A stretch of DNA of 64,000 nt. Origin: a virus (taxonomy: Duplodnaviria; Heunggongvirae; Uroviricota; Caudoviricetes). Under the pieces are notes generated by a model. It had not been told where the DNA came from, ran no database searches, and was given only the letters and a program-made list of their open reading frames with translations. Location: the IMG/VR virus record IMGVR_UViG_3300035498_001143. The stretch is one strand, 5' to 3'. Position numbers and translations under genes: made by a program. Below are positions 5,388 through 61,910 of this stretch, in pieces; positions within the stretch are counted from its first letter, which is position 1; each line of letters opens with the position of its first letter.

Positions 5388-5403
5388 TTATATAATATGT
5401 ATA

Positions 5404-5731: not shown

Positions 5732-5759
5732 AAGAATTTTTTATTTATCCTTAAAAATA

Positions 5760-5788
5760 TTGACAATGTTTAAAATTTGTTGTATAAT
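5760..5788 (+). promoter_or_regulatory. sigma70 promoter TTGACA-17-TGnTATAAT
   Basis: Exact consensus with an extended -10. Confidence 0.6.
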
Positions 5789-5829
5789 AAATTTGTTTAA
5801 AACCCTGTTTTTTAGGAGGTTACAACAAA

Positions 5830-6426: not shown

Positions 6427-6446
6427 AAAGAAAGGAAGTTTTGAGT

Positions 6447-26903: not shown

Positions 26904-26938
26904 TAAAGGGTGGAAATAATATCCACCCTTTTATTTTT
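26904..26938. terminator. bidirectional rho-independent terminator
   Basis: aagggtgga...tccaccctt flanked by A and T runs; lies between convergent genes. Confidence 0.6.
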
Positions 26939-27681: not shown

Positions 27682-28155
27682 ATGAGTAAATATAGTGGAA
27701 AATGTGATTTCTATGATATAATTGAAATTCACGGTATAGATAAAATATTAAATAGTAGGGTTTTTGTTGGCGATGAAGAAGTATTTTTAAAATCAGAAAA
27801 AGATTGTATTAAATATTATCCTTATGTTGTTTCTACTTCTCATACAGATAAGGACGGTGGTACATTTCATTTAACAGATAGGTCTTGGGTAGATATTGAA
27901 GAAGAAGGAATGTTGAAAATTTATTTAAATATATTTATTAGATACTTTAATAAATGCAAAAGAAATAATATAGAATATAAGATAGAAGATGCTGTTAAGC
28001 AAACATTAAGTAATGATGAAAAAGCCGTTTTAGAATTAGCTAATAGAGTAAAAGATAATGGTAAAACCGCTACTTATGAAGGCGTACATTTAAAATTGTA
28101 TGATTATTATAGGAATCTTTTAAATGATAAATTAAAGGAGGTTGATAATCTTTGA
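27682..28155 (+). CDS. hypothetical protein
   Basis: ORF with RBS. Confidence 0.4.
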   Translation: MSKYSGKCDFYDIIEIHGIDKILNSRVFVGDEEVFLKSEKDCIKYYPYVVSTSHTDKDGGTFHLTDRSWVDIEEEGMLKIYLNIFIRYFNKCKRNNIEYKIEDAVKQTLSNDEKAVLELANRVKDNGKTATYEGVHLKLYDYYRNLLNDKLKEVDNL

Positions 28156-32117: not shown

Positions 32118-33215
32118 ATGATTAATTTAATAAATGGTGATTGTCTTGAAAAAATGAAAGATATACAAGATAAGTCAATAGATTTAATTCTGTGCGATTT
32201 GCCTTATGGTACTCAAAAAAGTAATGGTTGTAAATGGGATATAATTATTCCTTTTGACAAACTATGGGAGCAATATAATAGAATCATAAAAGATGATGGT
32301 GCTATTGTTTTATTCGGAAAAGAACCTTTTAGTTCTTTATTAAGAGCGAGTAATTTAAATATGTATAAATATGATTGGATATGGAGTAAAGATACCAAGA
32401 GTAATTTTATGCAGTGTAATTATCAACCATTAAATAATTTGGAATGTATATCTGTGTTTTCAAAGGCTTACGCAAGAGAAATAAAAGATAAAGTAAAAAT
32501 GAAATACAATCCTCAATTTTCAGAGGGAGATAGTTATAAACTCCCAAAAGAAAGTAGTACGACAGAAATATTTAGTTCTAATCATAAAAACGGTAAATAC
32601 ATACATAAAGATAGAGATACATCAAAAAGATACCCATATAATACATTATTCTTTAATTCTGTAAAAGGAAAAGAAAAAATACATCCTACACAAAAACCAA
32701 TTGATTTATTAGAGTATTTAATAAAAACATATACAGATGAAAATGATTTAGTATTAGATAACTGTATGGGAAGTGGAAGTACAGGTATTGCTTGTATTAA
32801 TACTAATAGAAATTTTATAGGAATAGAAAAAGATATTGATTTTTATATAAAGGCGAGTAATAGAATAGAAGACCATAAAAATAGCATTTTATTAACTCAA
32901 GCAGTAAATGTAACTATTGATTGTATTAACGAAGATTATGAAGAATATGATGAAAATTACAATGAAGAAAATATTCAAGATTTTGAAATAAATTGTTTTG
33001 AATTGCCTAAACGTGATATTGATGATATTGCAGGAAATGAAATACAATTAGGAAATAATTATTTTTTTCGAGAACCTGAACAATTAGATAAAGTAGAATT
33101 TATTTCGTTTAAAAAACCTGATGATGAATATTTAGAACCACTTAATTCTGAAAGATTTGAAAATATTTTTGTAAAAGAAAGGTTTTATGAAGAAAAACCT
33201 TTAGAAAGGAAATAA
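32118..33215 (+). CDS. N4/N6 DNA methyltransferase, beta class, with acidic C-terminal extension
   Basis: N-terminal DLILCDLPYGT (catalytic) and C-terminal HPTQKP...DNCMGSGSTGIAC (SAM binding), the circularly permuted beta order. Confidence 0.75.
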   Translation: MINLINGDCLEKMKDIQDKSIDLILCDLPYGTQKSNGCKWDIIIPFDKLWEQYNRIIKDDGAIVLFGKEPFSSLLRASNLNMYKYDWIWSKDTKSNFMQCNYQPLNNLECISVFSKAYAREIKDKVKMKYNPQFSEGDSYKLPKESSTTEIFSSNHKNGKYIHKDRDTSKRYPYNTLFFNSVKGKEKIHPTQKPIDLLEYLIKTYTDENDLVLDNCMGSGSTGIACINTNRNFIGIEKDIDFYIKASNRIEDHKNSILLTQAVNVTIDCINEDYEEYDENYNEENIQDFEINCFELPKRDIDDIAGNEIQLGNNYFFREPEQLDKVEFISFKKPDDEYLEPLNSERFENIFVKERFYEEKPLERK

Positions 33216-33233
33216 TTAGAAAGGAAACAAAGA

Positions 33234-33917
33234 ATGAAATTATATAATAAAGATTGTTTAGAAGTTTTAAATAGATTAGAAGATAATTCAATTGACTTAT
33301 TGATTACTGACCCACCATATCCTGTAACATCAAGAGGCTCTGCAGGTAATAGCGGTGGTATGATGCAGAAAGATGTAAATAAAAAAGGTAAGGTTTTTCA
33401 ATTTAATGATATTAAATGTGAAGATTATGCACCTGAATTTTTTAGAATATTAAAAGACGGTAGCCATTGTTATGTAATGACTAATCACGTTAATTTAATT
33501 AATATGCTTAATACTTTTACTAATTGTGGTTTTCATTTTATTAAATGCTTAATTTGGAATAAAGGCAATAAGATTATGGGTCAGTATTATATGTCACAAT
33601 TTGAATACATACTCTTTTTTAGAAAAGGCAAAGGCGTAAAAATAAATAATTGTGGTACATCTGATATTTTATCTATTCCTAATAAAAAGAAAAAAGATGA
33701 GAATGGAAAGAACTTGCACGATACAGAAAAACCAGTTGAGCTTATGGAAATATTAGTTGGTAATTCAAGTAAAGAAAATGATACAGTTATTGACCCATTT
33801 ATGGGGATTGGTGCAACAGGAGTTGCTTGCAAAAATTTAAATAGAGATTTTATAGGCGTTGAATTAGATGAACATTATTTTAATATTGCCAAAGATAGGA
33901 TAAATAAAGGGGAGTAA
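33234..33917 (+). CDS. N4/N6 DNA methyltransferase, beta class
   Basis: DLLITDPPY then HDTEKP...DPFMGIGATGVAC. Confidence 0.75.
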   Translation: MKLYNKDCLEVLNRLEDNSIDLLITDPPYPVTSRGSAGNSGGMMQKDVNKKGKVFQFNDIKCEDYAPEFFRILKDGSHCYVMTNHVNLINMLNTFTNCGFHFIKCLIWNKGNKIMGQYYMSQFEYILFFRKGKGVKINNCGTSDILSIPNKKKKDENGKNLHDTEKPVELMEILVGNSSKENDTVIDPFMGIGATGVACKNLNRDFIGVELDEHYFNIAKDRINKGE

Positions 33918-33918
33918 T

Positions 33919-35129
33919 ATGAAAAAAATTAAATTAACTGCAAATATTCTTTTTAGTGGTATTGGCTGTCAAGAATATGGATGGAGAAAGAGTAATTTAT
34001 TTGATATAGAAGTATTAAATACTTCTGATATATACAAAGAAGCTGTATTATCTTATGCTGCTATACATTGTGATATGACTAATGAAATGGTAGATAGTTA
34101 TGATTATCCAACAAAAGAAGAAATGATTGAACATTTAACTAAAATAAATTTAGGATATGATGCAGATAAAAATAAACCATTTAATTGGAATAAGGTAAAA
34201 GATAATGATTTAAAGAAATATTACCTTGCTTGTAAATTAACAAATAATTTAGGTGATATTTCAAAAATTGAAGATTTACCTTATGCTGATTTTTGGACTA
34301 TTTCTTTTCCTTGTCAATCAATTTCAATATGTGGAAAATTAAAAGGTTTTACAGAGGGTTCTAATACAAGAAGTAGTTTATTATGGGAAAATATAAGATT
34401 ATTAAAAATTGCTAAAGAAAAGAATAAAACACCTAAGTATCTTATGTTCGAAAACGTAAAAAATTTACTTAGTAAAAGGTTTGAAAATGATTTTAAAGAT
34501 TTAGTTGATATATTAGACGATTTAGGTTTTAATATTTATTATAACGTATTAAATTCTAAATGTTGTGGAGTACCACAAAATAGAGAAAGAGTTTTTGTTA
34601 TTTGTATTAGAAAAGATACTGATACTAATTTATTTACTTTTCCAAAACCATTTGATAATGGAATGAGATTAAAAGATATTTTGGAAGATGAAGTTGATGA
34701 AAAATATTACATAAGTGAAGCAGCACAGAAAAAATTAAAATTTATAACTACTAATAGTAAAAACGATACTTTCCAATTAAAACAAATTGCTCAAATGTAT
34801 GGTACAGATAAAGAACCTAATCCTCAGGCAGGTAGAGTTTATAGTGAAGATTATATTTGCCCTACTTTAGATACTTGTAGCGGGGGAATAGAATGCCAAA
34901 AGTGTATAGAGAACCAAGAGTAAGAAAACTTACACCAAGAGAATGCTTTGCATTACAAGGTTTTACTTTTGAAGATTGTAATAAAGCAATAGATATAGGT
35001 GTTGCTGATTCTCATTTATACAAACAAGCAGGTAATGGTATTACGACTAATTGTTGTGCATTGTTAGCAGAACATTTATATAAAGCTCAATATAATAACT
35101 TTTACATTTGTAGTGATGAAAAATATTAA
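33919..35129 (+). CDS. C5-cytosine DNA methyltransferase interrupted by a frameshift at a G5 run (34882-34886)
   Basis: Motif I FSGIGC, IV FPCQ, VI ENV in the frame ending at 34923. Motif IX RKLTPRECFALQGF and X GNG are in the frame opening at 34881. One extra G would fuse them. Confidence 0.6.
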
Positions 35130-43024: not shown

Positions 43025-43879
43025 ATGAATAATTTAATTCCACCTTGTTCTTATCAAGGCGGCAAACAAAGACTTGCAAAACAAATTGTAGATATTATAT
43101 ATAAAGAAAATAATATTGATGAAAATACAAAATTTTTTGATATTTGTTGTGGTAGCGGAGCTGTTAGTTTAGAGTTAATAAATAATAACTTTAATTCTAA
43201 TAACATTACAATGATTGATATAAATATTTTTGGACTTTTCTATGAATATGTTTCTAAAAATAAATTTGATTTAAATATTTTTAAAGAAGAAATAGATAAA
43301 TTACCTGATAAAGAATACATACAACTTTATTTAAAACAATTAAGTGATTTACCTATTGATGAAGAAAAATTAGTATATCAATATTTATTGTTGCAGGCAG
43401 GTAGTTTTGGAAGTAAACAAATTTATATAAAAGATAATAAATGGAAGAATAACACGTTTAGAAATTATTGGCAACCTACTAAGAGTAGTAATAGAAAAAG
43501 TCCTGTCAATCCCATGATGCCGATGCCTGATACGTTATTTGAAAGAGTAGAAAATATTGTAAATAAATTAAGTGGTAAGATTGTTGCATACAATGATGAT
43601 ATTTTTAATATATTAAATATTTTTTCCAATTTAGATAATAATGTTATTATTTACATTGACCCACCGTACTCAAACACGACAAAATATAAAGATAGTTTTG
43701 ATGTTTATGAATTGATTGATAAGTTAAAAAACATAAATGATTTTACTATTTATATATCAGAAGGCGTTGAATTGAACAATGCTAAAAACACATATTTACT
43801 TTCAAGAGGTAGAACTAAAGGTAATATTAGTGGTAATGTAACTAAAAAGCCTGTTGAAGAATGGTTAAATAAATTCTGA
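43025..43879 (+). CDS. Dam-like (D12-class) N6-adenine DNA methyltransferase
   Basis: YQGGKQRLAK...CCGSGAV and IYIDPPY. Confidence 0.7.
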   Translation: MNNLIPPCSYQGGKQRLAKQIVDIIYKENNIDENTKFFDICCGSGAVSLELINNNFNSNNITMIDINIFGLFYEYVSKNKFDLNIFKEEIDKLPDKEYIQLYLKQLSDLPIDEEKLVYQYLLLQAGSFGSKQIYIKDNKWKNNTFRNYWQPTKSSNRKSPVNPMMPMPDTLFERVENIVNKLSGKIVAYNDDIFNILNIFSNLDNNVIIYIDPPYSNTTKYKDSFDVYELIDKLKNINDFTIYISEGVELNNAKNTYLLSRGRTKGNISGNVTKKPVEEWLNKF

Positions 43880-43906
43880 AAGTAAATTCTGAAAGGAATA
43901 TAAATA

Positions 43907-44239
43907 ATGAAATACAAACCAACAATTAAAGAATACTTAACTTGGATAAAAGAAGATATAAAAAGATTATATTATTTAATACGTTATTTTACAAAGGCAT
44001 TATTTAATGTAGATAAAAATATTTTATTAAGTAAAGATTTTAAAGTGGATAGTTATATTATTACTTTTCATTCTGACGATTATAGCGGAGCTTGTTATGA
44101 TGAAAGAAGATTTGATAATTTTAAAGACGCTTATGAACTTTACGAATTAAGTAAAAATCAAAAATGTAGAGAAGATTTTGTAAGATTGCATATTTCGATT
44201 GAATATATTGGAAATATAGAAATAGCAAGATATAAATAA
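43907..44239 (+). CDS. hypothetical protein
   Basis: ORF. Confidence 0.35.
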   Translation: MKYKPTIKEYLTWIKEDIKRLYYLIRYFTKALFNVDKNILLSKDFKVDSYIITFHSDDYSGACYDERRFDNFKDAYELYELSKNQKCREDFVRLHISIEYIGNIEIARYK

Positions 44240-44251
44240 GAGGTTTAATAT

Positions 44252-44641
44252 ATGAGAGAAATTATTTTTTTAATAAGTATTTTATTTTTTCACGTAATAG
44301 AAGATTTTTATTTTCAAGGGTGGTTAGCTTCTGCCAAACAAAAAACTTGGTGGATAAAAAACAATCCTAATGAAATGTATAAATATGATTATGTTGTAAT
44401 ATTACTTGTACATTCGTTTTCATGGACTGTTATGATACATATACCAATTTTAATTTATATGTATTTATTTAATATTTCAGTAGATGTTTCTGATTTTTCG
44501 TTTATGTTTATATTAACGATAATTATACATTGTCTTACTGATAATGCAAAAGCTAATTTATATAAAATAAATCTTATTCAAGACCAATTAATTCATTTAT
44601 TGCAAATTATTGTATTATGGGTTACTTACATAAATTTATAA
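44252..44641 (+). CDS. small membrane protein
   Basis: Three hydrophobic helices. Confidence 0.35.
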   Translation: MREIIFLISILFFHVIEDFYFQGWLASAKQKTWWIKNNPNEMYKYDYVVILLVHSFSWTVMIHIPILIYMYLFNISVDVSDFSFMFILTIIIHCLTDNAKANLYKINLIQDQLIHLLQIIVLWVTYINL

Positions 44642-44659
44642 ATTAAAGAAAGGAAATGA

Positions 44660-45097
44660 ATGATGAAAAAAATAAAATTGTGGATTTATAATTTTATTGT
44701 TAATGCTATCGCTGCTGATGACGATTTAAATTTAACAGGTAAGCAAAGAAGTCAATTATTTAGTCTAACTAATAAATTTAAAGTTAGAAATTGTAAAAAG
44801 AATTTAATTTATATAAGTCATCCTTATCAAGATAAAAAAGAAAATATTGAGGATATAGAAAAAATCATCAATAACTTGGTGAAGAAATATGATGAATATA
44901 CATTTGTTTCTCCTGTTCATTGTTTTGGATTTATGTATACAACTGTTTCTTATGATAGAGGGTTAGATTTTTGTCTTGATTTATTAGATTGCTGTGAACA
45001 AATGTGGGTGTTTGGTACTTATACAAATAGTATAGGTTGTACTAAAGAGATTGAATATTGTATTACAAATAATATTAAATATAAAATTTTTAGTTGA
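44660..45097 (+). CDS. hypothetical protein (nucleoside 2-deoxyribosyltransferase-like fold is a weak guess)
   Basis: YISHPY...VFGTY...G pattern only. Confidence 0.3.
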   Translation: MMKKIKLWIYNFIVNAIAADDDLNLTGKQRSQLFSLTNKFKVRNCKKNLIYISHPYQDKKENIEDIEKIINNLVKKYDEYTFVSPVHCFGFMYTTVSYDRGLDFCLDLLDCCEQMWVFGTYTNSIGCTKEIEYCITNNIKYKIFS

Positions 45098-45099
45098 TG

Positions 45100-45140
45100 A
45101 AAAAAAAGAGGGTAGAAAAACTACTCTCTTTTTTTAATTA
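45100..45140 (+). terminator. rho-independent terminator
   Basis: aagagggtagaaaaactactctctt plus T7. Confidence 0.55.
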
Positions 45141-45439
45141 TTATAACATTAAAGTTATTTGCTTAATAATATGTATACTATCTATCTTATTTTGCGTTTA
45201 TTTGCCTTTTTAATGGTTTGTAACTTTTTAGGTGAACGAATTATCGTCAGTCATCTTAAAATTCAAAATAAGGGCATTTCTGAGCGTTTTAGAGCCATAT
45301 ATTAAATCATTCAATAGTCCGTCATTCATTTTTTGTTATATAAGTCTTAATTTTTATAATTTTGAACTAATGAAATTGAGAGTGAATCTTAGAGTTAATT
45401 TTTATCCCTATATAAAAATTCATCAAATAGAGATTTACT

Positions 45440-45907
45440 TAGGTGTTTAATTATTATTAATTATTTTAATATATTATTTAAAAGCTTAATATATTTCTTA
45501 GTATATCTTAAAGCTTTAGTATATAATTAATTATTAATATATATAATATAAAAAGAATAATCATGCATGGATGTATATTAATTATTTTATATATTAATTT
45601 AAATATTAATTTAAATATATATAGATATACTAAGATGAATCTATATAGTATAATTAATATATATATACATGATTATTAATAATTAATATATAGTAGTAGT
45701 AGGGGACACCCAAAAATGTTGATAAGTGCCTCAAATGAGTACTATGTACTCGAATAAGTATGTTAATAACGTGTTGATAAGTATGTTAGTTATAAACATT
45801 GTCAACATCAATTAACATAGTTTGAAAAATAAAACGATTTCTTGTGTTGATAAAAAAGGACTTATTAACACCTATCAACATACAATGTTGATAACTATGT
45901 TGATAAT
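45440..45907. repeat. origin-like region: ~260-bp extreme AT tract followed by seven DnaA-box-like 9-mers (TGTTGATAA / TTATCAACA)
   Basis: Direct copies at 45717, 45772, 45845, 45886 and 45898; inverted copies at 45799 and 45872. Each differs from TGTGGATAA by one base. 45440-45700 is almost pure A+T with many short palindromes. Confidence 0.5.
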
Positions 45908-45932
45908 GTGAATAACTTTCTAAGGGAAAAAA

Positions 45933-46693
45933 TGATGAATGAGTATGAATTGTATAATGATGATTGTTTAGAACAAATGAAAAATATTGATGATAAATCT
46001 ATTGATTTGATATTAACTGATTTGCCATACGGTACTACTAATTGTAAGTGGGATTCAATTATACCATTAGATTTATTATGGGAACAATATAATAGAATTA
46101 TTAAAGATAATGGAGCGATTCTTTTGTTTGCACAAACACCATTTGATAAGATATTGGGTTGTTCTAATTTAAAAATGCTGAGATATGAATGGATATGGGA
46201 AAAGACACAAGCAACAGGACATTTCAATGCTAAGAAAATGCCTATGAAAGCCCACGAAAACATATTAGTATTTTATAAAAAATTGCCTACATACAATCCT
46301 CAAAAAATCCAAGGGTGTAAGCCTGCACACGGAGCTGTAAGAAAAGCAGAAGTTGGTAACAAAACACAAATATATGGAAAAGTAAAAGAAGATTCTGTTT
46401 ATGAAGGTGGTAATACAGATAGATACCCTCGTTCTGTAATAATATTTGCTTCCGATAAACAAACTTGTTGTTTACACCCTACACAAAAGCCTGTTGCTTT
46501 ATGTGAATATTTAATTAAAACATATTCTAATGAAAATGATATAGTCTTGGATAGCTGTATGGGGAGTGGAACTACAGGAATAGCTTGTTTAAATACTAAT
46601 AGAAAATTCATAGGAATTGAAAAAGAAAAACAATATTTTGATATAGCTAAAAAAAGAATTGATGATTTTTTAAAGGAGAAAAACATTGAGTAA
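45933..46693 (+). CDS. N4/N6 DNA methyltransferase, beta class (paralog 1)
   Basis: DLILTDLPYGTT then HPTQKPVALCEYLI...DSCMGSGTTGIAC. Confidence 0.75.
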
Positions 46694-47438
46694 TTATGAA
46701 ATTTACAATGATGATTGTTTAGAAAAAATGAAAGATATTTCTGATGAAAGTATAGATATGATTCTTTGTGATTTGCCTTATGGAACAACAGCTTGTAAAT
46801 GGGATATAATTATCCCTTTCAATAAGTTATGGGAACAGTATGAAAGAATAATAACGAATACAGGTGTAATTTGTTTATTCGGACAAGAACCATTTTCAAG
46901 TATGTGTAGAATGAGTAATTTAAATTTATATAGATATGATTATGTATGGCAAAAACAAAAACCAAGTAATTTTCAATTGATGAATTATCAATGTGGTAGA
47001 GTTCACGAAAATATAATGATTTTTAGTAAAGCAAAGGCTTGTTATACTAAAAATGGTGCTAAAATAAATTATTTTCCAATAATGGAAAAAAGAGAAAAAG
47101 TAAGAAAAGCTAATGCTAAAATTTATAATAATGGTAAAGCAGACTTATTACATAATTACAAAACAGAAGATAATTTCAAAACCTATGAAGAAAAACACCC
47201 TATTTCTATTTTAAAATTTAACGCAGTAGAGCATAGAGTTCATCCAACTCAAAAGCCTATTGATTTATTAGAATATCTAATTAAAACATTTACTAAAGAG
47301 AATATGACTGTATTAGATAATTGTATGGGTAGTGGTAGTACGGGTGTTGCTTGTTTAAATATAAATAGGAATTTCATAGGGATAGAGAAAGAGAAGAAAT
47401 ATTTTGATATCGCAAAGGACAGATTAAAAGATGTTTGA
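46686..47438 (+). CDS. N4/N6 DNA methyltransferase, beta class (paralog 2)
   Basis: DMILCDLPYGTT then HPTQKPIDLLEYLI...DNCMGSGSTGVAC. Confidence 0.75.
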   Translation: MSNYEIYNDDCLEKMKDISDESIDMILCDLPYGTTACKWDIIIPFNKLWEQYERIITNTGVICLFGQEPFSSMCRMSNLNLYRYDYVWQKQKPSNFQLMNYQCGRVHENIMIFSKAKACYTKNGAKINYFPIMEKREKVRKANAKIYNNGKADLLHNYKTEDNFKTYEEKHPISILKFNAVEHRVHPTQKPIDLLEYLIKTFTKENMTVLDNCMGSGSTGVACLNINRNFIGIEKEKKYFDIAKDRLKDV

Positions 47439-48183
47439 AAATTGTAATTATGAATTATTTCACGGTGATTGTTTAGAGGTAATGAATAATTTAATAAATA
47501 ATAATATAAAAGTTGATTTAATTTTAACAGATTTACCTTATGAAACAACAAAATGTAAATGGGACATTTTAATTCCTTTTGAAGATTTATGGGATAGATA
47601 TAATAAATTAACAGAAGATAATACACCTATTGTTTTATTTGGGCAAGAACCTTTTAGCTCTTTATTAAGAACAAGTAATTTAGAAAATTACAAGTATGAT
47701 ATTTATTGGGAAAAAGAAAGATTAACTAATATAAATCAAGTTAAAAAAAGAGTAGGAAAAACTGTTGAAACTATTTCTATCTTTTATAAAAAACAATGTA
47801 TTTACAATCCTCAAATGATTAAATATGATGGTAAACCGAGAAGTAATAAAGTAAAGAATGGTAAATTAGGAAAATTAACTGATGATAATGAAAAGAAAGT
47901 ATTTGAATATAAAGATACAGGGTGGAGATATCCTACACAAGTTTGGAAATATCAAAGAGATTGTCTAACTTCTAATTTACATCCTACTCAGAAACCAATT
48001 AAGTTATTAGAAGATTTAATAAAAACTTTCTCTAACGAAAATGCAATCGTATTAGATTCTTGTATGGGTTCAGGTAGCACAGGAGTTGCCTGTTTAAATA
48101 CTAATAGAAAATTTATAGGCATAGAGAAAAATGATGAATATTTTGATATAGCAAAGAAAAGAATTGAGGAGCTTGTTTTATGA
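47431..48183 (+). CDS. N4/N6 DNA methyltransferase, beta class (paralog 3)
   Basis: DLILTDLPYETT then HPTQKPIKLLEDLI...DSCMGSGSTGVAC. Confidence 0.75.
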   Translation: MFENCNYELFHGDCLEVMNNLINNNIKVDLILTDLPYETTKCKWDILIPFEDLWDRYNKLTEDNTPIVLFGQEPFSSLLRTSNLENYKYDIYWEKERLTNINQVKKRVGKTVETISIFYKKQCIYNPQMIKYDGKPRSNKVKNGKLGKLTDDNEKKVFEYKDTGWRYPTQVWKYQRDCLTSNLHPTQKPIKLLEDLIKTFSNENAIVLDSCMGSGSTGVACLNTNRKFIGIEKNDEYFDIAKKRIEELVL

Positions 48184-48929
48184 AATATTTTGGTAGTAAA
48201 AGTAGAATAGCAAAACAAATAATACCCATAATTCAGGAGTACATTGATAAGGGTAATTTTGATACATATATTGAGCCTTTTTGTGGCGGTGCAAATGTAA
48301 TAGATAAAATAGATTGTAAAAATAAAATTGGTTATGATTTAAACAAATATTTAATTGCATTATTAAATTATGTAAAAGACGGTGGAGAATTATATTCATC
48401 AGTAGATAAAGATTTATATGATAAAGCAAGAACAGCTTTTTATAATGATGACAATTCCACATTTACTGATTGGCAAATTGGTAATATTGGTTTTCTTGCT
48501 TCTTATAATGGTCGTTTTTATGATGGTGGTTATGCAAAGCCCGTATATGAAAAAACTAAAAAGGGCACAAGATATCGTGATTATTACAAAGAGGGTAAAG
48601 ATAATTTACTTAATCAAGCCCCTGATTTGAAAGATGTTAAATTTATAAATAAAGATTATAAAGATATAATTCTTCCTGATGATTGTTTAGTATATTGTGA
48701 CCCACCGTATAAGAATACTAAAAAGTTTTACATAGATAAGAATTTTGATTATGATGCTTTTTGGAATAAAATAAGAGAATGGAGTAAAGACCATATTGTT
48801 TTAGTTAGTGAACAAGAAGCACCTAATGATTTTGTTTCTATATGGGAAAAAGATGTAAATAGAAGTATTAATGTTAATAACAAATTTAGTGCAACTGAAA
48901 ATATGTTCATACATAAAAGTTTAACGTGA
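48180..48929 (+). CDS. Dam-like (D12-class) N6-adenine DNA methyltransferase
   Basis: YFGSKSRIAK...YIEPFCGGANV and VYCDPPY. Confidence 0.75.
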   Translation: MKYFGSKSRIAKQIIPIIQEYIDKGNFDTYIEPFCGGANVIDKIDCKNKIGYDLNKYLIALLNYVKDGGELYSSVDKDLYDKARTAFYNDDNSTFTDWQIGNIGFLASYNGRFYDGGYAKPVYEKTKKGTRYRDYYKEGKDNLLNQAPDLKDVKFINKDYKDIILPDDCLVYCDPPYKNTKKFYIDKNFDYDAFWNKIREWSKDHIVLVSEQEAPNDFVSIWEKDVNRSINVNNKFSATENMFIHKSLT

Positions 48930-48938
48930 GGAAAAATA

Positions 48939-49715
48939 ATGGAAATAAATAAAGTTTATAATATGGATTGTTTAGAGTTATTAAAAACAATAGATAAAAA
49001 TTCAATAGATTTAATTCTTATAGACCCACCATATTTAATTAGTCGTGATAGTCATTTTACCCAAGGTGCTAAAAATGATGAAATGAAAAGTAAATATGGA
49101 AAACATAAAATAGATTTTGGTGATTGGGATAAAGGAGAATTAAATCTTCAAAACATATTATCTGAAAGTTATAGAATATTAAAAGACAATGGTACTTTAA
49201 TAATGTTTTATGATTTTTGGAAAATGCAAGAAGTAAAAGAAACTGCTGAACAAATAAAATTTAAGCAACCAAGGTTAGGTATATTTAATAAAACTAATCC
49301 TGTACCTGTAAATGCTAAAATTAATTATTTATCTAATGCGAAAGAATTTTTTGTTACTTTTGTAAAGAAGTCAAAACCAACTTTTAATTCTTATTACGAT
49401 AATGCAGAATATTATTTATCTGAAAATTCAGAAGAAGCAGATACATATTATTTTCCAATAGTACACGGTAAAGAAAGAACTAAACACCCTACTCAAAAAC
49501 CATTATCTTTAATAAAAGATTTAATAAAGAAACATAGTAATGAAGATGATATAGTATTAGATTTCTTTGCAGGTAGTGGTACAACAGGAGTAGCTGCTTC
49601 TGAATTAAATAGAAATTATATATTATGTGAAATAAATAAAGAATATTATGAAATAATCAAAGAAAGATTATCTAAAGAAGAATTATCCAAAAAACCTTCT
49701 AAAGATATAAATTAA
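48939..49715 (+). CDS. N4/N6 DNA methyltransferase, beta class
   Basis: DLILIDPPY then HPTQKPLSLIKDLI...DFFAGSGTTGVAA. Confidence 0.75.
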   Translation: MEINKVYNMDCLELLKTIDKNSIDLILIDPPYLISRDSHFTQGAKNDEMKSKYGKHKIDFGDWDKGELNLQNILSESYRILKDNGTLIMFYDFWKMQEVKETAEQIKFKQPRLGIFNKTNPVPVNAKINYLSNAKEFFVTFVKKSKPTFNSYYDNAEYYLSENSEEADTYYFPIVHGKERTKHPTQKPLSLIKDLIKKHSNEDDIVLDFFAGSGTTGVAASELNRNYILCEINKEYYEIIKERLSKEELSKKPSKDIN

Positions 49716-51561: not shown

Positions 51562-52824
51562 ATGGCGAAGAAAACTGAAAGTACAGAAAAGTCACCAAAG
51601 TGTGTATTTTGTGGAAGAACAAGTGAACAAATTGGTGACAGTATTTTTATCCAAAGTCCTTTAAATGAACACGATTGTATTTGTTCTGATTGTTTGAACG
51701 AAGCACATCAACTTTTGATGAATGAAAATCAAATTGATTTGGGTACAGATGAGGTTAAGGCTAAAGAAGCTATTAAGATTGCAATGCAATTACCAAAGCC
51801 TATTGAAATTAAAGATTTTCTTGACGATTATATTGTAGGTCAGGATAAGGCTAAGAAAACGATATCTGTTGCTACATATAATCATTATAAGAGAATTACA
51901 AGTAAAATCTTGGGTGATGAAATCCAAAAGAGTAATGTATTATTGCTTGGTCCAACTGGTAGCGGAAAAACATTAATAGCTAAAACAATAGCTAAGATGT
52001 TAGATTTACCTTTTGCAATTGCTGATGCAACTTCATTAACAGAAGCAGGTTATGTTGGTGAGGACGTAGAAAATATATTATTAAAACTTATTCAGGCAGC
52101 TGATGGTAATATTGAGCTTGCTGAAAGAGGTATAATATTTATTGATGAAATTGATAAGCTTGCAAGAAAAACTCAAAATGTATCTATTACAAGAGATGTA
52201 AGTGGTGAGGGTGTTCAGAACGCTTTACTTAAAATTATTGAGGGTACAGTAGCAAATGTTCCACCTCAGGGCGGTAGAAAACATCCCAATCAGGAGTTTA
52301 TAAAAATTGATACAAGTAATATCTTATTTATCTGCGGTGGTGCTTTCCAAGGTATTGAAAAGATTATCAAGCAGAGATTAGGTAAAAAGACTATTGGCTT
52401 TAATAAAGAAAGTATTATTACTACTGATGAAGAATACTTAAAGTTCTTACAGCCTGAGGATTTAATTCAGTATGGTTTAATTCCTGAATTTATCGGTAGA
52501 CTTCCTGTTATTAGTACACTTGATAAGTTGACAGAAGATGCACTTGTTAAGATTTTAACAGAACCTAAAGATTCACTTGTATCTCAGTATCAAAAGTTGT
52601 TTGCTATTGATGATATTGAACTTACTTTTACAGACGAAGCACTTAAACTTATTGCTAACATTGCAATTAAGCGTGATTTAGGTGCAAGAGGTCTTAGAAG
52701 TATTATGGAAGAAATTATGGAAGATGTAATGTTTACTTCTCCATCAGATGACCTTGAATTTATTGAAATTACAGAAGATTTTGTTAGAGAAAATTTAGTA
52801 AATGATATTAAAGAAGAAGCTTAA
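51562..52824 (+). CDS. clpX: ATP-dependent Clp protease ATP-binding subunit ClpX
   Basis: N-terminal C4 zinc domain (CVFCGR...CSDC), Walker A GPTGSGKT, Walker [14 protein letters not shown] pore loop, sensor motifs. Confidence 0.9.
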
Positions 52825-57440: not shown

Positions 57441-57459
57441 ATATAAATATAAGCCTATG

Positions 57460-57490
57460 TATTAATTTACATAGGCTTTTTTTATTGAAA
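57460..57490. terminator. bidirectional terminator between convergent blocks
   Basis: aagcctatgta...tacataggctt plus T7. Confidence 0.6.
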
Positions 57491-57496: not shown

Positions 57497-57751
57497 TCAT
57501 ATAGCAACTCTTTCCTTGCTTAATATATCATTAATATATTTATGTTCTGCTTTTAAAGCCTCAGAACGCTTTGTAAATGGTCCTAATACTGGTCCGCCTA
57601 TTGGTGATAAATCAGCACTCCAACCGCCATCACAAGGCTCTACGTGGCTTGCACGTTTGATTGTGCTATCTCCTAATTCTTCAAGTTCAAGTTCTTCATT
57701 GTAAATGCTCTGTACTTCACCATTATCGTTAAATGATAATACTAATTCCAT
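57497..57751 (-). CDS. hypothetical protein
   Basis: Minus ORF; locally higher GC. Confidence 0.4.
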   Translation of the reverse strand: MELVLSFNDNGEVQSIYNEELELEELGDSTIKRASHVEPCDGGWSADLSPIGGPVLGPFTKRSEALKAEHKYINDILSKERVAI

Positions 57752-57765: not shown

Positions 57766-58200
57766 CTATATTTCTTTTAATGTTTGTAAAGAGATAATAG
57801 TTCTTCTTCTCTTTTTCTTTTTGATGAATATATTACTTTCAGTTTCTTTATTGTTTATTTTCTTAACTACTTTTTCTTTCTTTACTTTTTCTTGAACCTG
57901 CATTTCTTGAATATTATTCATACGTTTTACTTGTATATTTGTAATATTTATTGCATTAAATTTATATTCCAAATAACATATATTTTGAAATATATCATCG
58001 AGTTTATAATTAGGATATCTATTTAAAATAAACTCAATAGCTATTAAACCATCCTGCGTAGGTATTGTATTAACATCTACAATTTCATATATCTGTAAAC
58101 GAGAAATGATACATTCAATTATATCATTTATACTAAAATTACCACCATTATGTTTTGTATTAGAACAATAAAAAAATTCAATAATTGCTTTTTTCATCAA
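57766..58200 (-). CDS. paralog family member 4 (ferredoxin-like N-domain plus KKKKRRRTIISLQT tail)
   Basis: Shares its N-terminal pattern and C-terminal basic motif with the next three genes. Confidence 0.45.
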   Translation of the reverse strand: MMKKAIIEFFYCSNTKHNGGNFSINDIIECIISRLQIYEIVDVNTIPTQDGLIAIEFILNRYPNYKLDDIFQNICYLEYKFNAINITNIQVKRMNNIQEMQVQEKVKKEKVVKKINNKETESNIFIKKKKRRRTIISLQTLKEI

Positions 58201-58221: not shown

Positions 58222-58653
58222 TCATAAATCCTGTATTGTACTTAAAGAAACTATTGTTCTTCTTTTGTTTTTCTTTGTTGCTTCTTTTGAAATAGTGCTT
58301 TTTGAAGAAATATCTTCTGAATAATTATCCTCTATAATATCTTTTTCGTTACTATTTTCATTTTCATCAGGAGTTAATGCAATATCTATTATACTTATTA
58401 ACATATATTTGTTTGGCTTGAAATCTTGAAAACTATCTATTATATCGTTAAGAGTACAATTAGAATGTACGTCTAACATAAATTCCAATGTAATTATATT
58501 ATTTCTAAAGTCTTGCTCTCCTATGTTATGCCTTACTATTTTAAAGTTTTGTAATATACGGATAAATTCATCTATAGTTTCCAATACACAAAAAGAATAT
58601 CTGCTTTCTATTTTTAAACTATAAAAGAACTTAATAGTTAGTGTCTTAAACAT
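58222..58653 (-). CDS. paralog family member 3 (KKNKRRTIVSLST tail)
   Basis: As above. Confidence 0.45.
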   Translation of the reverse strand: MFKTLTIKFFYSLKIESRYSFCVLETIDEFIRILQNFKIVRHNIGEQDFRNNIITLEFMLDVHSNCTLNDIIDSFQDFKPNKYMLISIIDIALTPDENENSNEKDIIEDNYSEDISSKSTISKEATKKNKRRTIVSLSTIQDL

Positions 58654-58657: not shown

Positions 58658-58948
58658 TCATTCCCTTCTATATGGTACTATTTTTCTTCTTTTATTTAAT
58701 TTAGGTTCTTTTGATTCAATTTCATTATATGCTACAACTTCAATATTGGGTATTTCGTTTAATTCTTTAGCAACGCTCTCCATATTACATTCATATTTTA
58801 AAACAATATTTAATGTAAATATTTTATCTTTCATATTATGATTTGTTTGTACAATGTTCTGAACAGAGAATCTTTTTAATTTATCTTCAATTATGAATAA
58901 AACTCTCCTATCAATTCTCTTATATTTAAACTCCACTTCCACTATCAT
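58658..58948 (-). CDS. paralog family member 2 (LNKRRKIVPY tail)
   Basis: As above; the start is trimmed to an internal Met to limit overlap. Confidence 0.4.
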   Translation of the reverse strand: MIVEVEFKYKRIDRRVLFIIEDKLKRFSVQNIVQTNHNMKDKIFTLNIVLKYECNMESVAKELNEIPNIEVVAYNEIESKEPKLNKRRKIVPYRRE

Positions 58949-59432
58949 TTTCATCACCATCTTTTTTTAATATTACTATTTTTCTTTTTCTTTTATTTAA
59001 AACCCTAAGAACTTCATCGTTTTCATTTTCTACATTAAAAATATCTTTTTCAATGGAATTATTTATAGGAGCTTGTTCTGTATTACGTTTAACTACTTCA
59101 TATTTTAAAACAGTAATTAAATCAATATCATTATTATCTTCAATGAATTTTGTTGTTTGATTTATAAATTCATCAATAAAGTTATCATTTACTTCATATA
59201 TATCTATTACAACATCTACCCAAAAACCATAAATTATATCCCCGTAAATTGTTTTTCCATCGGCTGTAAGATTTAATACATTAGGTATAGTTTCAGCTAA
59301 GATAAATGTTGCCTCTATATTTATATTTTGAAACTTTTTTTCAAGTTTTTTAATCGAATCTTCCACAAGGCTGCGAGTACAATAAAAACTACTTACTTGC
59401 ATTTTTATTTTCAATATTATCAGTCCTTTCAT
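58926..59432 (-). CDS. paralog family member 1 (KRKRKIVILKK tail)
   Basis: As above. Confidence 0.4.
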   Translation of the reverse strand: MKGLIILKIKMQVSSFYCTRSLVEDSIKKLEKKFQNINIEATFILAETIPNVLNLTADGKTIYGDIIYGFWVDVVIDIYEVNDNFIDEFINQTTKFIEDNNDIDLITVLKYEVVKRNTEQAPINNSIEKDIFNVENENDEVLRVLNKRKRKIVILKKDGDENDSGSGV

Positions 59433-59529: not shown

Positions 59530-59715
59530 TTAGTATTTCGTTACAGTAGCAACATTGTCATTCTTATAAAATTCAGGTGTAACTTTTGAGCTTGTAATAA
59601 CACCTAAGTTTTTTTCAAATGGCTTAGTCAGGTCTTTACAAGACATACCTGCTACTTCTTTTACTTCCATATTAGTGTTGCCTTCTTCATCAAAAGTAAA
59701 AACGATTTGGCTCAT
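59530..59715 (-). CDS. DUF2997-like small protein
   Basis: 61 aa, ...EVKEVAGMSCKDLTKPFEKNLGVI... resembles the DUF2997 pattern (kG..C...T.....LG). Confidence 0.45.
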   Translation of the reverse strand: MSQIVFTFDEEGNTNMEVKEVAGMSCKDLTKPFEKNLGVITSSKVTPEFYKNDNVATVTKY

Positions 59716-59879
59716 GCTATATCAATCCTTTCAAACCAATTTCCTTGGCTATCTAACATTATTTCTCTCTTACAATATTTACAAATAGAATGAACATTTA
59801 CTTCGTCCATATAAGTTTTAGTATTGTCGGGTTTATGCCAACCAAAGAAGCCACATAAGATTTTTGTACTAAGTTTCAT
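59712..59879 (-). CDS. small zinc-ribbon protein (55 aa, below ORF-track cutoff)
   Basis: C...C...CKYC; ATGA start/stop overlap with the downstream gene. Confidence 0.3.
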   Translation of the reverse strand: MKLSTKILCGFFGWHKPDNTKTYMDEVNVHSICKYCKREIMLDSQGNWFERIDIA

Positions 59880-59897
59880 ATTGTAATATTCACCTCT

Positions 59898-60251
59898 TTA
59901 GACGTTTACAAACAGCTTAATATCATTACCTACTTTCTTTTCAGTAAAAGTATATCCATTCTTCTTAGCAACAAGTTTTGTTTTTTCAACAGCATATCTT
60001 TGTTTAAGAGTGTTCAACTCTTTTATATCTCCCCAGTTACCTTCGTAATTATCAAAAATAATTTCACCATTACTTTTTACGCATACAGGATATCTCCAAT
60101 TAGGGAGTTTAATTTTTGTACCGTGTTCTCTTTTACCGTCAAAGAAATCAACATTAGTATTTTCAACACAATCAATACCAAGTTCTTTACAAGCATTTTT
60201 AAGTACCGTTATATCTTTCATTTTTACATCAATAGTAGTACAATGTGACAT
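59898..60251 (-). CDS. DUF1257 (Ycf35-like) protein
   Basis: 117 aa, N-terminal MSHCTTIDVKMKD..VLKNACKELG... and length typical of DUF1257, which co-occurs with DUF2997. Confidence 0.45.
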   Translation of the reverse strand: MSHCTTIDVKMKDITVLKNACKELGIDCVENTNVDFFDGKREHGTKIKLPNWRYPVCVKSNGEIIFDNYEGNWGDIKELNTLKQRYAVEKTKLVAKKNGYTFTEKKVGNDIKLFVNV

Positions 60252-60263
60252 AATTTAACCACC

Positions 60264-60485
60264 TCACTTTTCTTTCTTTAAATAAGTATAAGTAACAGTA
60301 TCTCCATTATCCATATGAACTGATATCTCAGTAGGATAACCCGTTGGTTCGCTCTTTTGTGATAAATAATTTTTAGCAAAAACTGTTTTAGGTGTTTTAT
60401 GGTTCTTTTCACAAGCAATAGCCTTATCTCTTTCTTTATATACAGTTTTGCAAAACTCACACTGATATTGTTTCATTTCTAACAT
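60264..60485 (-). CDS. zinc-ribbon protein
   Basis: CEFC...CEKNH. Confidence 0.35.
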   Translation of the reverse strand: MLEMKQYQCEFCKTVYKERDKAIACEKNHKTPKTVFAKNYLSQKSEPTGYPTEISVHMDNGDTVTYTYLKKEK

Positions 60486-61910
60486 TTAACTCACCTCTTG
60501 TGTTTTTACAATAGTTCTTTTAACGCTTTTTGGTGTGGTAGAAACCTTATTAGAAGCATAGATTGTTCTATCTTTAGCCCATTCTCTAAGCATTTCTATC
60601 TTTTCTTTCATAGTTTTATAGATAGGTGTTACATATTCACTTGCTTCTAATAAAGAAGTATTAAGACAAGAAGCAAGGCGATACATCGTTTTTATTTCTG
60701 CACCTGTCCAATTTTCAATGTTAGGTAACTGTGTATCTTCAACTTTGTATTCTTTTTTGTAAATTTCACAAATACCTTTTCTTTCTTCCTCATTAGGTAA
60801 GTCAACGAAAAAGATAGCATCCCATCTTTCCGCTCTCAAATATTCAGGTGGAAGTTTAGATATATCATTACTTGTAGCAATAACATATACATCACTATCG
60901 TGGTCAGATAACCATTTAAGAAATTGTCCACCTTGTCTTTGTGAAGTACCACTATCACCATTATATCCACTTACTCCTGCTAATCCTTTTTCGATTTCGT
61001 CAATAAACAAAATGCAAGGGTTCATAGCATCAACAGTTTTTAAAGCATCTCTTGTTTTCTGCTCTGTTTCGCCAACAAGCTTACCCATCATAGCACCAAA
61101 ATCCATATTGATTGTTACTCTATTGGTTTCAGTACCTAATGTGTTTGCAAAGTGAGATTTACCACCGCCTGGAACGCCAACAAGAAGAATACCTTTACCT
61201 TTACCAACCATTCTTTTTGCAAAATATTTAAGCTTATCTAACCCGTACAATGTATTAAAATCAAGTTTCTTAGTGTTGATTGTTAAAGAACCCTGTGTTT
61301 TAATCAACTGTTTTTTCTGTTCGTTTATAAACTCAGGCAAAAGCTTATCTTCAAGACTAAGACTCAAACTTAAAGCGTTATCAAGTTCAAATGTTGTCAA
61401 TCCCAATCCTGCTTGAATAATTGCTTCTTTTTCTTTTTTAGAAATTTTGTATTCAAAATCATCACAAAATTCAGTTATAAAATCATCAATTTCTTCTTTA
61501 GTAGGCAAGTTGAAATCAAGTATAGTCATATACCTTGAAACTTCACTTGGCAGTTCTACTGTTGGAGATATGATTGTAAATGTACAACAGTTCCTTTTGT
61601 AATTTTCCATATTGTTAATCAAAGCTCTCCAAGCAACATTGTTTTTAATGTAATTATCATAATCTAATACAAAGATAATCATATTGTTTTCTTTTTCTAA
61701 AGTTTCAATTGGTTGAAGTGCATCCATTGTGCTTTCTTCGTGAACTTCATCAAGAGTATAAACCCCTTTATTTATATCCCAAATACGATACTGTCTTTTT
61801 AATTTTTTACAATCATTTATACATTGATTGATACACCTTTCGTATTCAAAAGTATTCAACCAAAGCAAAGGATAGCCTGCTGAAATGTGTTTTAAAAACG
61901 GACTTTTCAT
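60486..61910 (-). CDS. AAA+ ATPase (classic AAA/CbbX-like) with large N-terminal domain
   Basis: Walker A GVPGGGKS, Walker B ILFIDEIEK, SRH-like region. Confidence 0.7.
   Translation of the reverse strand: MKSPFLKHISAGYPLLWLNTFEYERCINQCINDCKKLKRQYRIWDINKGVYTLDEVHEESTMDALQPIETLEKENNMIIFVLDYDNYIKNNVAWRALINNMENYKRNCCTFTIISPTVELPSEVSRYMTILDFNLPTKEEIDDFITEFCDDFEYKISKKEKEAIIQAGLGLTTFELDNALSLSLSLEDKLLPEFINEQKKQLIKTQGSLTINTKKLDFNTLYGLDKLKYFAKRMVGKGKGILLVGVPGGGKSHFANTLGTETNRVTINMDFGAMMGKLVGETEQKTRDALKTVDAMNPCILFIDEIEKGLAGVSGYNGDSGTSQRQGGQFLKWLSDHDSDVYVIATSNDISKLPPEYLRAERWDAIFFVDLPNEEERKGICEIYKKEYKVEDTQLPNIENWTGAEIKTMYRLASCLNTSLLEASEYVTPIYKTMKEKIEMLREWAKDRTIYASNKVSTTPKSVKRTIVKTQEVS

Follow-up and report, generated by a model that had tools for sequence, protein, structure and literature searches.

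Among the conserved reading frames that plastids and cyanobacteria possess, Ycf46 and Ycf35 are two of long-unexplained molecular function. Phenotypic and transcriptomic data link cyanobacterial Ycf46 to stress induction, CO2 use and interaction with KaiC. Few operons respond to stress with as strong an induction as that of Ycf46 and, in Synechococcus, the induction is ppGpp-dependent and runs opposite to the expression of ribosomal genes. Regarding Ycf35, a DUF1257 protein for which an N-terminal Met-Ser-His signature has been described (PMC13060386), it can also be found in a cyanobacterial DUF2997-Ycf35-Fed7 gene cluster (PMC4284462), and cyanophage P-SSM7 carries DUF2997 and DUF1257 among its photosynthesis auxiliary genes. 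The relatives reported below form a physically linked module in which an AAA+ ATPase is joined by DUF1257, DUF2997, an 84-aa family without a model (p84) and, in most cases, DUF3150. No description of this mobile-element module was found in the open-access literature searched.

The window analysed is a stretch of 64,000 nucleotides from a virus of the Caudoviricetes (IMG/VR record IMGVR_UViG_3300035498_001143), probably a giant or huge lytic phage. Five tightly packed genes can be found on its minus strand at 59530-61910, encoding proteins of 474, 73, 117, 55 and 61 aa, all present as an earlier note on this DNA had read them. With intergenic gaps of 0, 12, 18 and -4 nt in gene order, they make up one transcription unit (operon 1) closed by a terminator. 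The consensus promoter announced in the earlier note (61985-61957, minus strand; TTGACA-17-TGgTATAAT) is of the sigma-70 type and agrees at 12 of 12 consensus positions, with a TG extension in addition, and the ATGA overlap said to join the 55-aa and 61-aa genes is readable directly in the sequence. Perfect promoter sites occur 11 times in the window, against 0.22 expected by chance. The operon ends in a terminator-like hairpin of the intrinsic type (59522-59495, minus strand), with an 11-pair stem followed by TTTTTT, and four such hairpin and T-run sites are present in the region where 0.9 would be expected. While the genes of the block at 59530-61910 are real, its delimitation had omitted a second operon: the minus-strand block runs on with five further genes down to 57497, which belong to the same conserved module and are separated from operon 1 by the terminator. 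Operon 2 has its own perfect consensus promoter with a TG extension (59480-59452, minus strand), and a bidirectional terminator-like hairpin (57451-57478) marks the end of the block. Nor is it the only minus-strand block, as had been claimed, a 198-aa minus-strand gene with its own perfect promoter also existing at 26937-27533. The cassette lies between a 5'-3' exonuclease gene and DHH, gyrase and SbcC genes. At the nucleotide level, none of 50,697 phage records matched the block.

The first gene of operon 1 (60486-61910, minus strand) encodes 474 aa which, judged by sequence, constitute a classical AAA+ ATPase and a homolog of Ycf46. The protein matches Pfam AAA (PF00004) at 88 bits (cut-off 21.2) over residues 241-370 and possesses Walker A, Walker B, sensor 1 and a second region of homology with arginine fingers; alignments of 15 and of 115 sequences show little or no variation in the Walker A motif GVPGGGKS (K251), D304-E305, N348 and R359/R362. 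Homology to Ycf46 spans the full length, N-terminal half included, with 32% identity to WP_023070418 ("stress-responsive protein Ycf46") over residues 1-457 (E 4e-75). The chain holds two AAA-fold modules, the N-terminal half aligning in register with the AAA half: residues ~1-210 form a degenerate AAA module without a P-loop, and residues ~225-450 a classical one, predicted to be active, whose catalytic and pore residues are invariant. The pore loop displays a Leu at a position that is aromatic in many unfoldases. The last ~20 residues, ending in ...KSVKRTIVKTQEVS, have pLDDT values down to 63-65 and no DSSP secondary structure, which suggests a flexible tail. At least 3449 members of this ATPase family can be found in a public protein collection. 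The Ycf46 link of the ATPase had been missed in the earlier note.

Regarding functional annotation, NCBIfam holds no specific model for any part of the module and PHROGs assigns no function to any part, the DUF3150 proteins being without a match there. In PADLOC, the small proteins are without a match and the matches of the ATPase are weak and limited to the AAA domain. Membership in two described systems was considered and rejected: for IetAS, NF042959 gives 48 bits against a cut-off of 510, in the AAA domain only, and no protease is encoded in the block; for the TRIP13/HORMA type of CBASS, the TRIP13 match reaches 17.8 bits and neither a HORMA nor a cyclase gene is present.

The 117-aa protein (59898-60251, minus strand) begins with MSHCTTI, the Ser at position 2 and the His at position 3 being invariant in 38 sequences. 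Although it falls just under the Pfam threshold for DUF1257 (PF06868; 19.8 bits, cut-off 22.2, E 1e-3), the same profile matches 28 of 38 syntenic relatives (best 2.3e-23) and, going by this family-wide conservation and the M-S-H start, the protein in all likelihood belongs to the DUF1257 family; the assignment proposed in the earlier note is supported for the family, while the window protein itself remains below the cut-off. Its predicted alpha+beta fold is TBP-like, the DUF1257 model resembling TBP-like and KA1 folds such as TBP, the RNase H3 N-domain, RdgC and the METTL16 KA1 domain. In BFVD, just two significant Foldseek matches to the model were obtained, neither of them named. The 61-aa protein (59530-59715, minus strand), whose start overlaps the preceding stop codon, had been assigned to DUF2997, and this is borne out by 47.2 bits against PF11211 (cut-off 24.1) over the full profile (1-47). 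Small and rich in beta structure, DUF2997 has a conserved Gly-x-x-Cys, the residues conserved across 70 relatives being G12, G22, C26 and L37-G38. The DUF1257 and DUF2997 genes are translationally coupled in many related loci.

Two further genes of operon 1 encode small Cys/His proteins. The 73-aa CxxC...CxxxH protein (60264-60485, minus strand) is zinc-ribbon-like, with only a weak match to a Pfam Zn_ribbon model, and is kept solely in the nearest lineages (L004/L095, L096 and, with 68 aa, L178). The 55-aa protein (59712-59879, minus strand) is a lineage-specific accessory found in the window and in L004/L005/L095; L178 has no such gene and its DUF2997 directly follows DUF1257. Since both are restricted to the nearest lineages, the zinc-ribbon proteins were rejected as core components.

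In operon 2, the last gene (57497-57751, minus strand) encodes the 84-aa p84 protein, which has no Pfam model and whose family motif reads R-x-S-H-V-E-P...W-x-A-D-L-S-P...G-P-x-L-G-P-F...R-S-x-A-L. The window protein matches a custom-built p84 HMM at E 7.7e-32, and, searched with this HMM, 52 of the first 94 loci and 35 of 80 viral loci have a p84 gene adjoining the AAA gene. The family comprises 1208 cluster representatives at E<=1e-3, and no shared Pfam family was matched among 31 of its members. PDB sequence and profile searches with DUF1257, DUF2997, p84 and DUF3150 gave nothing significant, and hhalign comparisons among these four families revealed no credible relationship.

The other four genes of operon 2, all on the minus strand, encode small variable proteins that fill the DUF3150 position and end in a basic-hydrophobic tail. 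The 168-aa protein (58926-59432; ...NKRKRKIVILKKDG...), with a C-terminal [KR][KR]x[IV][IV], occupies the very position of DUF3150 in other lineages; it is followed by proteins of 100 aa (58658-58960; ...NKRRKIVPYRRE), 143 aa (58222-58653; ...KNKRRTIVSLSTIQDL) and 144 aa (57766-58200; ...KKKKRRRTIISLQTLKEI), the last two being paralogs (phmmer E about 3e-7). No DUF3150 (PF11348) gene was found in the window, relaxed thresholds included. Such variable tail-bearing proteins replace DUF3150 in six related low-GC lineages.

What is new here is a basic-hydrophobic C-terminal tail common to the ATPase and DUF3150, which co-varies by lineage. Within their last 20 aa, 121/154 ATPases and 96/104 DUF3150 proteins have the motif [KR][KR].?[IVL]; the share is 3-9% for the other partners and 16% for background ORFs. 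Leaving kinship aside, a tail motif on the ATPase is associated with the presence of DUF3150 (70/82 versus 8/20, Fisher p 8e-5), and the similarity between tails of the same locus is 13.07, versus 10.17 +/- 0.41 when permuted (z 7.1, 0/10,000). Composition bias was considered as the cause of this similarity; the controls (z about 0 to 3) argue against it, in a comparison that ignores phylogeny.

The survey of related loci covered about 170 of them. Co-occurrence was counted where the flanking sequence reached 3 kb or more on either side of the locus, i.e., in 39 genome loci and 60 viral loci; the counts ignore phylogeny, and the 80-locus samples are weighted to close relatives, many of them from Planctomycetota. 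Read with this kinship ignored, DUF1257 can be found in 37, DUF2997 in 34, DUF3150 in 32 and p84 in 31 of the genome loci, and in 48, 47, 45 and 31, respectively, of the viral loci. DUF1257 and DUF2997 lie together on the same strand near the AAA gene in 34/39 genome loci and 44/60 viral loci, kinship again being ignored, and the dedicated machine suggested in the earlier note is therefore well supported: both families have profile support and their homologs do co-localise with the same AAA+ partner elsewhere. Chaperone activity, defence and counter-defence, also proposed in the earlier note, are candidate roles. The module is present in at least 387 viral contigs and, across many bacterial phyla, non-photosynthetic ones among them, it is carried by phages and plasmids as well as by integrated elements; plasmid pTHEAM01 of Thermovibrio, a megaplasmid of Bacillus thuringiensis and Agrobacterium phage JP1 have the same partners. 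Among more distant phage homologs of the ATPase, e.g., Corndog gp96, no partners were detectable, and membership of Corndog gp93-95 in the same partner families was not detected.

Taken together, the locus may well be a mobile-element version of the Ycf46 AAA+ machine devoted to tail-directed remodelling, a reading to which about an even chance is given. By analogy with proteins of related fold, the ATPase would assemble into a hexamer of two stacked tiers, one made of the degenerate, nucleotide-free N-terminal module and the other of the active C-terminal module. Since Walker A, Walker B, the pore loop and the arginine fingers are intact, the active module should thread or pull polypeptide. 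DUF1257 and DUF2997, as near-constant companions of the ATPase, would be an adaptor or regulatory pair and p84 a further conserved subunit. The K-R-T-I-V tail of the ATPase may represent a docking or engagement code, by which DUF3150 or the tail-bearing proteins, plus whatever they bind, would be brought to the motor. Both operons have perfect host-type promoters, so that host RNA polymerase presumably transcribes the module soon after entry. The outcome would be the remodelling or dismantling of a protein or nucleoprotein complex to the benefit of the element. The Leu in the pore loop and the more distant phage homologs without detectable partners speak against this reading. A more specific proposal, namely that the tail docking code re-aims a Ycf46-type unfoldase via interchangeable, fast-evolving adaptors and so dismantles host complexes (e.g., defence machinery) right after entry, is speculative and rather unlikely to hold in full. 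In such a docking-code reading, DUF3150 would serve as the adaptor of most elements, whereas this phage clade would use one to five small variable proteins. Alternatively, the tail could act as a degron recognised by a host protease, direct translocation as a signal or form a patch that binds nucleic acid.

Other explanations of the locus have to be weighed against tail-directed remodelling. That the five genes are adjacent by chance, unrelated small ORFs simply following an ATPase, is extremely improbable: two of the five, the zinc ribbons, are indeed lineage-specific, but the partner families recur on the same strand beside the ATPase in at least six phyla, on chromosomes as well as in phages and plasmids, and in several gene orders, which in effect refutes it. 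Anti-phage or abortive-infection defence, with the ATPase as a sensor or regulator comparable to IetA in IetAS or TRIP13 in CBASS, would fit the frequent carriage of such genes by phages and plasmids, the toxin-antitoxin, DndB or OLD-like genes that neighbour some related loci, and the weak matches to IetA (PADLOC, 58 bits; NCBIfam IteA model, 48 bits) and to TRIP13. However, these matches involve the generic AAA domain alone, with scores far under the family cut-offs (48 versus 510 bits); the module has no conserved effector, be it an IetS or other protease, a HORMA protein or a nuclease, and the four partner families match no PADLOC model. Moreover, the phage is huge and probably lytic, and the module stands among its replication genes and shares their type of promoter; it also recurs in the many viral contigs counted above. 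A defence role is held to be quite improbable.

Involvement in host physiology has somewhat more in its favour, yet is still held to be a minor possibility. It would make the locus an auxiliary module akin to the Ycf46 stress operon, imposing or modulating a growth-arrest or stress checkpoint in the infected cell through a conserved cellular target, as opposed to defence proteins. Full-length homology to Ycf46, a DUF1257 partner common to both, the strong stress induction of the Ycf46 operon with its ppGpp dependence opposite to ribosomal genes in Synechococcus, and the auxiliary setting of the pair in P-SSM7 all point that way. Against it, the mobile version adds DUF3150 or tail proteins, p84 and the ATPase tail, which cyanobacteria lack, the module occurs in non-photosynthetic phyla, and tail proteins that evolve fast and vary in number point to a changing target. 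An accessory role in DNA replication, segregation or genome entry, with DUF1257 as a nucleic-acid binder and an ATPase that would strip proteins from the DNA of the element or load them onto it, draws on the resemblance of the DUF1257 model to folds of which many bind DNA or RNA, on the strongly basic tails, on the position of the cassette next to the exonuclease, DHH, gyrase and SbcC genes, and on the ParA/ALP, tubulin-like, FtsK, primase and UvrD genes that neighbour some related loci; such a role is nevertheless deemed unlikely.

For the study of Ycf46 and Ycf35, the module yields defined candidate interaction partners, a short tail motif that is directly testable and tractable non-photosynthetic systems. 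For phage biology, it adds a widespread, probably early-expressed module that is missing from the current catalogues of defence and anti-defence. If the docking code holds true, phages and plasmids would possess a programmable "segregase with plug-in adaptors", and a first mechanistic handle would be gained on Ycf46 and Ycf35 of plastids and cyanobacteria.

Comparison with known systems sets the module apart in several respects. Unlike type II AAA+ proteins (Cdc48/p97/VAT, NVL/Rix7, Pex1/6 and NSF), the window ATPase has a first module without any P-loop, lacks the double-psi-barrel N domain and is much smaller (474 aa), and its partners DUF1257, DUF2997, DUF3150 and p84 are unrelated to the UBX, SNAP or Pex adaptors. 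IetAS and SgiAT of SGI1, which are defence or addiction modules, resemble the window module in being borne by mobile elements and having a SpoVK/Ycf46/Vps4-type AAA+ ATPase, but they combine it with an S8 protease, a partner that the window module does not have. The DUF2997-Ycf35-Fed7 cluster and cyanophage P-SSM7 share with the window the same pair of small proteins, adjacent or overlapping, and the M-S-H start; the cluster, however, has a ferredoxin partner and no AAA+ gene, whereas in the window the pair is split by the 55-aa Cys/His protein and lies downstream of the ATPase. The closest counterpart is Ycf46 of cyanobacteria and plastids (Slr0374, Synpcc7942_0417), homologous to the window ATPase over the full length at 32% identity. 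The two operons are alike in having three to five genes and a tightly regulated promoter, and in cyanobacteria (loci L087-L094) a DUF1257-family gene lies directly downstream of Ycf46, whereas in the window it is two genes downstream of the ATPase. Ycf46 is chromosomal or plastid-encoded, while the window copy belongs to a phage; an RHH/zinc-ribbon protein is encoded upstream in the cyanobacterial operon, whereas the 73-aa window protein is without a match in the cyanobacterial loci; and no DUF2997, DUF3150 or p84 can be found nearby in cyanobacteria, where the ATPase ends in ...EYQRMEF without a basic-hydrophobic tail. Since it lacks the RHH/zinc-ribbon partner, is phage-borne and is accompanied by DUF2997, p84 and tail proteins, the window ATPase is best called Ycf46-like, rather than an ortholog of the cyanobacterial and plastid clade.

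All five minus-strand genes that the earlier note had placed at 59530-61910 (-) were found, with products of 474, 73, 117, 55 and 61 aa and intergenic gaps of 0, 12, 18 and -4 nt, the last being the reported ATGA overlap, between the 55-aa and 61-aa genes. The consensus promoter is likewise present 5' of this operon 1, as TTGACA-17-TATAAT with a TG extension at 61985-61957, and a strong Shine-Dalgarno sequence (AAAGGAG) lies between it and the start of the 474-aa AAA+ ATPase. Since the 61-aa gene is also followed immediately by a terminator-like hairpin and T-run (59522-59495), the five genes make up a self-contained transcription unit. The minus-strand block extends past it: a second perfect promoter (59480-59452) serves five further minus-strand genes, encoding 168, 100, 143, 144 and 84 aa and closed by a bidirectional hairpin at 57451-57478. 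This operon 2 is part of the conserved module to which the ATPase belongs, and the GC skew is reversed over 58-62 kb, as expected from opposite-strand genes. Contrary to the earlier note, the cassette is not the sole minus-strand unit, since a 198-aa gene at 26937-27533 (-) is driven by its own perfect promoter (27608-27580). Altogether, 11 perfect TTGACA-N17-TATAAT sites are found in the window against 0.22 expected by chance (5760, 12000, 14905, 17491, 23738, 27580, 31088, 50896, 54920, 59452 and 61957), those of operons 1 and 2 included. Their common extended form, TTGACAAAC...TGTGGTATAAT, also given as TTGACAAAC...TGTG[GA]TATAAT, suggests a class of strong host-type promoters specific to the element.

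The ATPase scores 88 bits against Pfam AAA, is matched along its full length by phrog_8638 and has the D2 modules of VAT/Cdc48/p97 as its top PDB matches. In alignments of 15 and 115 homologs it is conserved end to end, the first 210 residues included, with invariant Walker A, Walker B, sensor 1, two arginine fingers and a pore-loop motif, G-[KS]-[LY]-V-G-E-[TS]-E. The AlphaFold model has high confidence (pLDDT 92.9). Read together with the alignment, its strands and helices in the N-terminal half follow the order of an AAA module with a helical lid, and there is no P-loop. When one genome per species was scanned, cyanobacterial proteins matched residues 1-457 with 32% identity; these are named 'stress-responsive protein Ycf46' by NCBI and UniRef, and direct BLASTP against Ycf46 gives an E-value of 4e-75.

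Regarding the small proteins of operon 1, the 61-aa product is a DUF2997 protein as proposed (47.2 bits against a Pfam cut-off of 24.1). The 117-aa product falls just under the DUF1257 cut-off (19.8 against 22.2), but its proposed placement in this family holds on three other grounds: DUF1257 is matched by 28 of 38 proteins occupying the same position in related loci, the protein aligns with the DUF1257 protein encoded next to cyanobacterial Ycf46 (E 1e-12), and it begins with M-S-H, a signature invariant in the DUF1257 alignment and described for Ycf35 (PMC13060386). The Cys-rich 73-aa and 55-aa proteins are confined to the nearest lineages and are accessories. A conserved Gly-x-x-Cys is seen in DUF2997, and ferredoxins or Cys-rich proteins are often encoded near DUF1257/DUF2997 genes. 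A histidine at position 3, or position 2 once Met is removed, is the arrangement of N-terminal Cu/Ni-binding motifs, which the invariant Met-Ser-His of DUF1257 proteins (59898-60251 in the window; alignments A2 and A4) fits.

Linkage was surveyed with partner-family HMMs built from Pfam-validated seeds and run on all ORFs of 80 bacterial/archaeal genome loci, 80 IMG/VR loci and about 20 loci obtained via protein look-ups; those flanked by 3 kb or more on each side entered the counts, and a family was scored on the strand of the ATPase at up to 5 kb. In samples that lean towards the query's relatives, and in counts not corrected for phylogeny, the neighbourhood survey suggested by the earlier note places DUF1257 beside the same AAA+ partner in 37 of 39 genome loci (DUF2997 34, DUF3150 32, p84 31; all four 30, none 1) and in 48 of 60 viral contig loci (47, 45 and 31, respectively; all four 24, none 4). 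Chance adjacency of the cassette genes is excluded. The DUF1257-DUF2997 pair is upstream of the ATPase in Planctomycetota and downstream in Nitrospirota, Thermodesulfobacteriota and low-GC phages; because gene order thus varies between phyla, the linkage appears to be under selection and not one inherited arrangement. The same partners occur on annotated plasmids of Thermovibrio ammonificans and Bacillus thuringiensis and in Agrobacterium phage JP1. In cyanobacteria, by contrast, the module is divided over two sites, Ycf46 being paired with a DUF1257 paralog and a DUF2997-Ycf35-Fed7 cluster being sited apart from it (PMC4284462).

Other gene associations were encountered around these families. 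In about 17 Planctomycetota loci (within L020-L061), DUF3150 and p84 are followed, ~1.5-5 kb 3' of the ATPase, by ThiS-like ubiquitin-like, Cys-rich ~350-aa, JAB/MPN peptidase and ThiF/E1-like genes, which could be a ubiquitin-like conjugation set tied to a Cdc48-like ATPase; a large serine recombinase lies upstream. In two Clostridium sp. contigs (L008/L009), where DUF1257, DUF2997 and p84 are all missing, a 465-aa ATPase homolog precedes one 484-aa protein whose family is unknown; this may be an alternative partner set. DUF3150-like genes without a Ycf46-like ATPase are found on conjugative plasmids, in Burkholderia, Cupriavidus and Simplicispira (L177), the last adjoining a VWA-domain protein with a different ATP-binding protein nearby.

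The ATPase ends in ...VKRTIVKTQEVS, a tail modelled with low confidence and without secondary structure. Scored as [KR][KR].?[IVL] within the last 20 residues, the tail motif is present in 121/154 ATPases and 96/104 DUF3150 proteins; the corresponding values are 3-9% for DUF1257, DUF2997 and p84, 16% for background ORFs, and 4/154 and 10/104 for internal control windows of the ATPase and DUF3150. The ATPase motif tracks DUF3150 (70/82 with it vs 8/20 without; Fisher p 8e-5), and cyanobacterial Ycf46 differs in having neither. Furthermore, the exact tail shifts jointly in ATPase and partner between lineages: RKLSI with RKLSV (group of loci L164-L174), KRSLEV with KRSLEF (L143), ERGVEL with KRGFEI (L139), GRTIDF with GRMIDF (B. 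thuringiensis plasmid) and RKVxL with RKVII (L152-L170 group). Tails of one locus resemble each other more closely than tails paired by permutation (best 6-mer score, mean 13.07 vs 10.17 +/- 0.41, z 7.1, 0/10,000 permutations). When other segments or other partners are compared as controls, scores are much lower and z ranges from -1.0 to 3.0. The tail is read as a putative common docking or engagement signal.

DUF3150 is absent from the window. Between DUF2997 and p84 lie four genes for small proteins, in each of which an acidic linker connects an N-terminal domain to a basic C-terminal tail (RKRKIVIL, KRRKIVPY, KRRTIVSL and RRRTIISL), and one to five unrelated small tail-bearing proteins take the place of DUF3150 in six phage lineages of low GC (ATPase identity 48-81%). 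The 84-aa protein (57497-57751 (-)) belongs to a family, here named p84, that lacks a Pfam model and of which 1208 cluster representatives are found in a library of 1.84 billion proteins; it comes after DUF3150 in most related loci and between DUF1257 and DUF2997 in some lineages (L006, L180, L181). One protein (P0228) joins DUF3150 to p84, and in locus L074 one ORF (4677-6479) spans DUF2997 and extends into the ATPase. Both may be true fusions, favouring physical association, or artefacts of assembly or gene calling.

The window also carries gyrase/topoisomerase IV-like subunits, an SbcC-like ATPase, a DHH phosphoesterase, a ClpX-like ATPase, a 5'-3' exonuclease, many DNA methyltransferases, a homing endonuclease and TnpB, and no virion genes. 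The most likely identity of the element is a low-GC phage of very large size, as the closest relative of the cassette (81% ATPase identity, flanking genes identical in kind) sits on a 502,690-bp metagenomic contig whose IMG/VR entry is a 379-kb viral genome. Methyltransferase ORFs are unusually dense (28152-29003, 32118-34923 and 43025-49715), with five consecutive ORFs of ~250 aa at 45908-49715, the first of which was the one searched; this may reflect broad anti-restriction methylation. The TnpB/IS605 OrfB-type gene (8608-9759 (+)), with HTH, OrfB and Cas12f-like TNB domains, has phage-like surroundings, and TnpB is also near the module in L006. The second AAA+ gene (51562-52824 (+)) is of the ClpX/HslU type (AAA_2 and ClpB_D2-small), and its counterpart in the relative L178 has a ClpX zinc finger. 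ClpX recognises basic-hydrophobic C-terminal tags, e.g., on MuA, which presumably resemble the module tails described here.

The best-supported reading of the module is a putative tail-directed AAA+ remodelling machine, in which the ATPase would form a two-tier ring as motor, DUF1257/DUF2997 would be its cofactor pair and p84 a further component, the tail-bearing proteins might act as adaptors or clients, and the consensus promoters would allow expression by host RNA polymerase. A defence system could be hypothesized instead, but the module has neither an effector nor a match in defence catalogues. It could also act on host physiology, as an equivalent of the Ycf46 stress operon already on record in the literature, or be an accessory to DNA transactions.

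The DUF1257 and DUF2997 pairing is likewise on record (PMC4284462). In the searchable open-access literature, no description was found of a mobile-element module with DUF3150 and p84, of a degenerate first AAA tier or of a shared co-varying tail. With regard to known systems, the module, best read as a tail-directed remodelling machine, is related to AAA+ remodelling machines and to the Ycf46 family.
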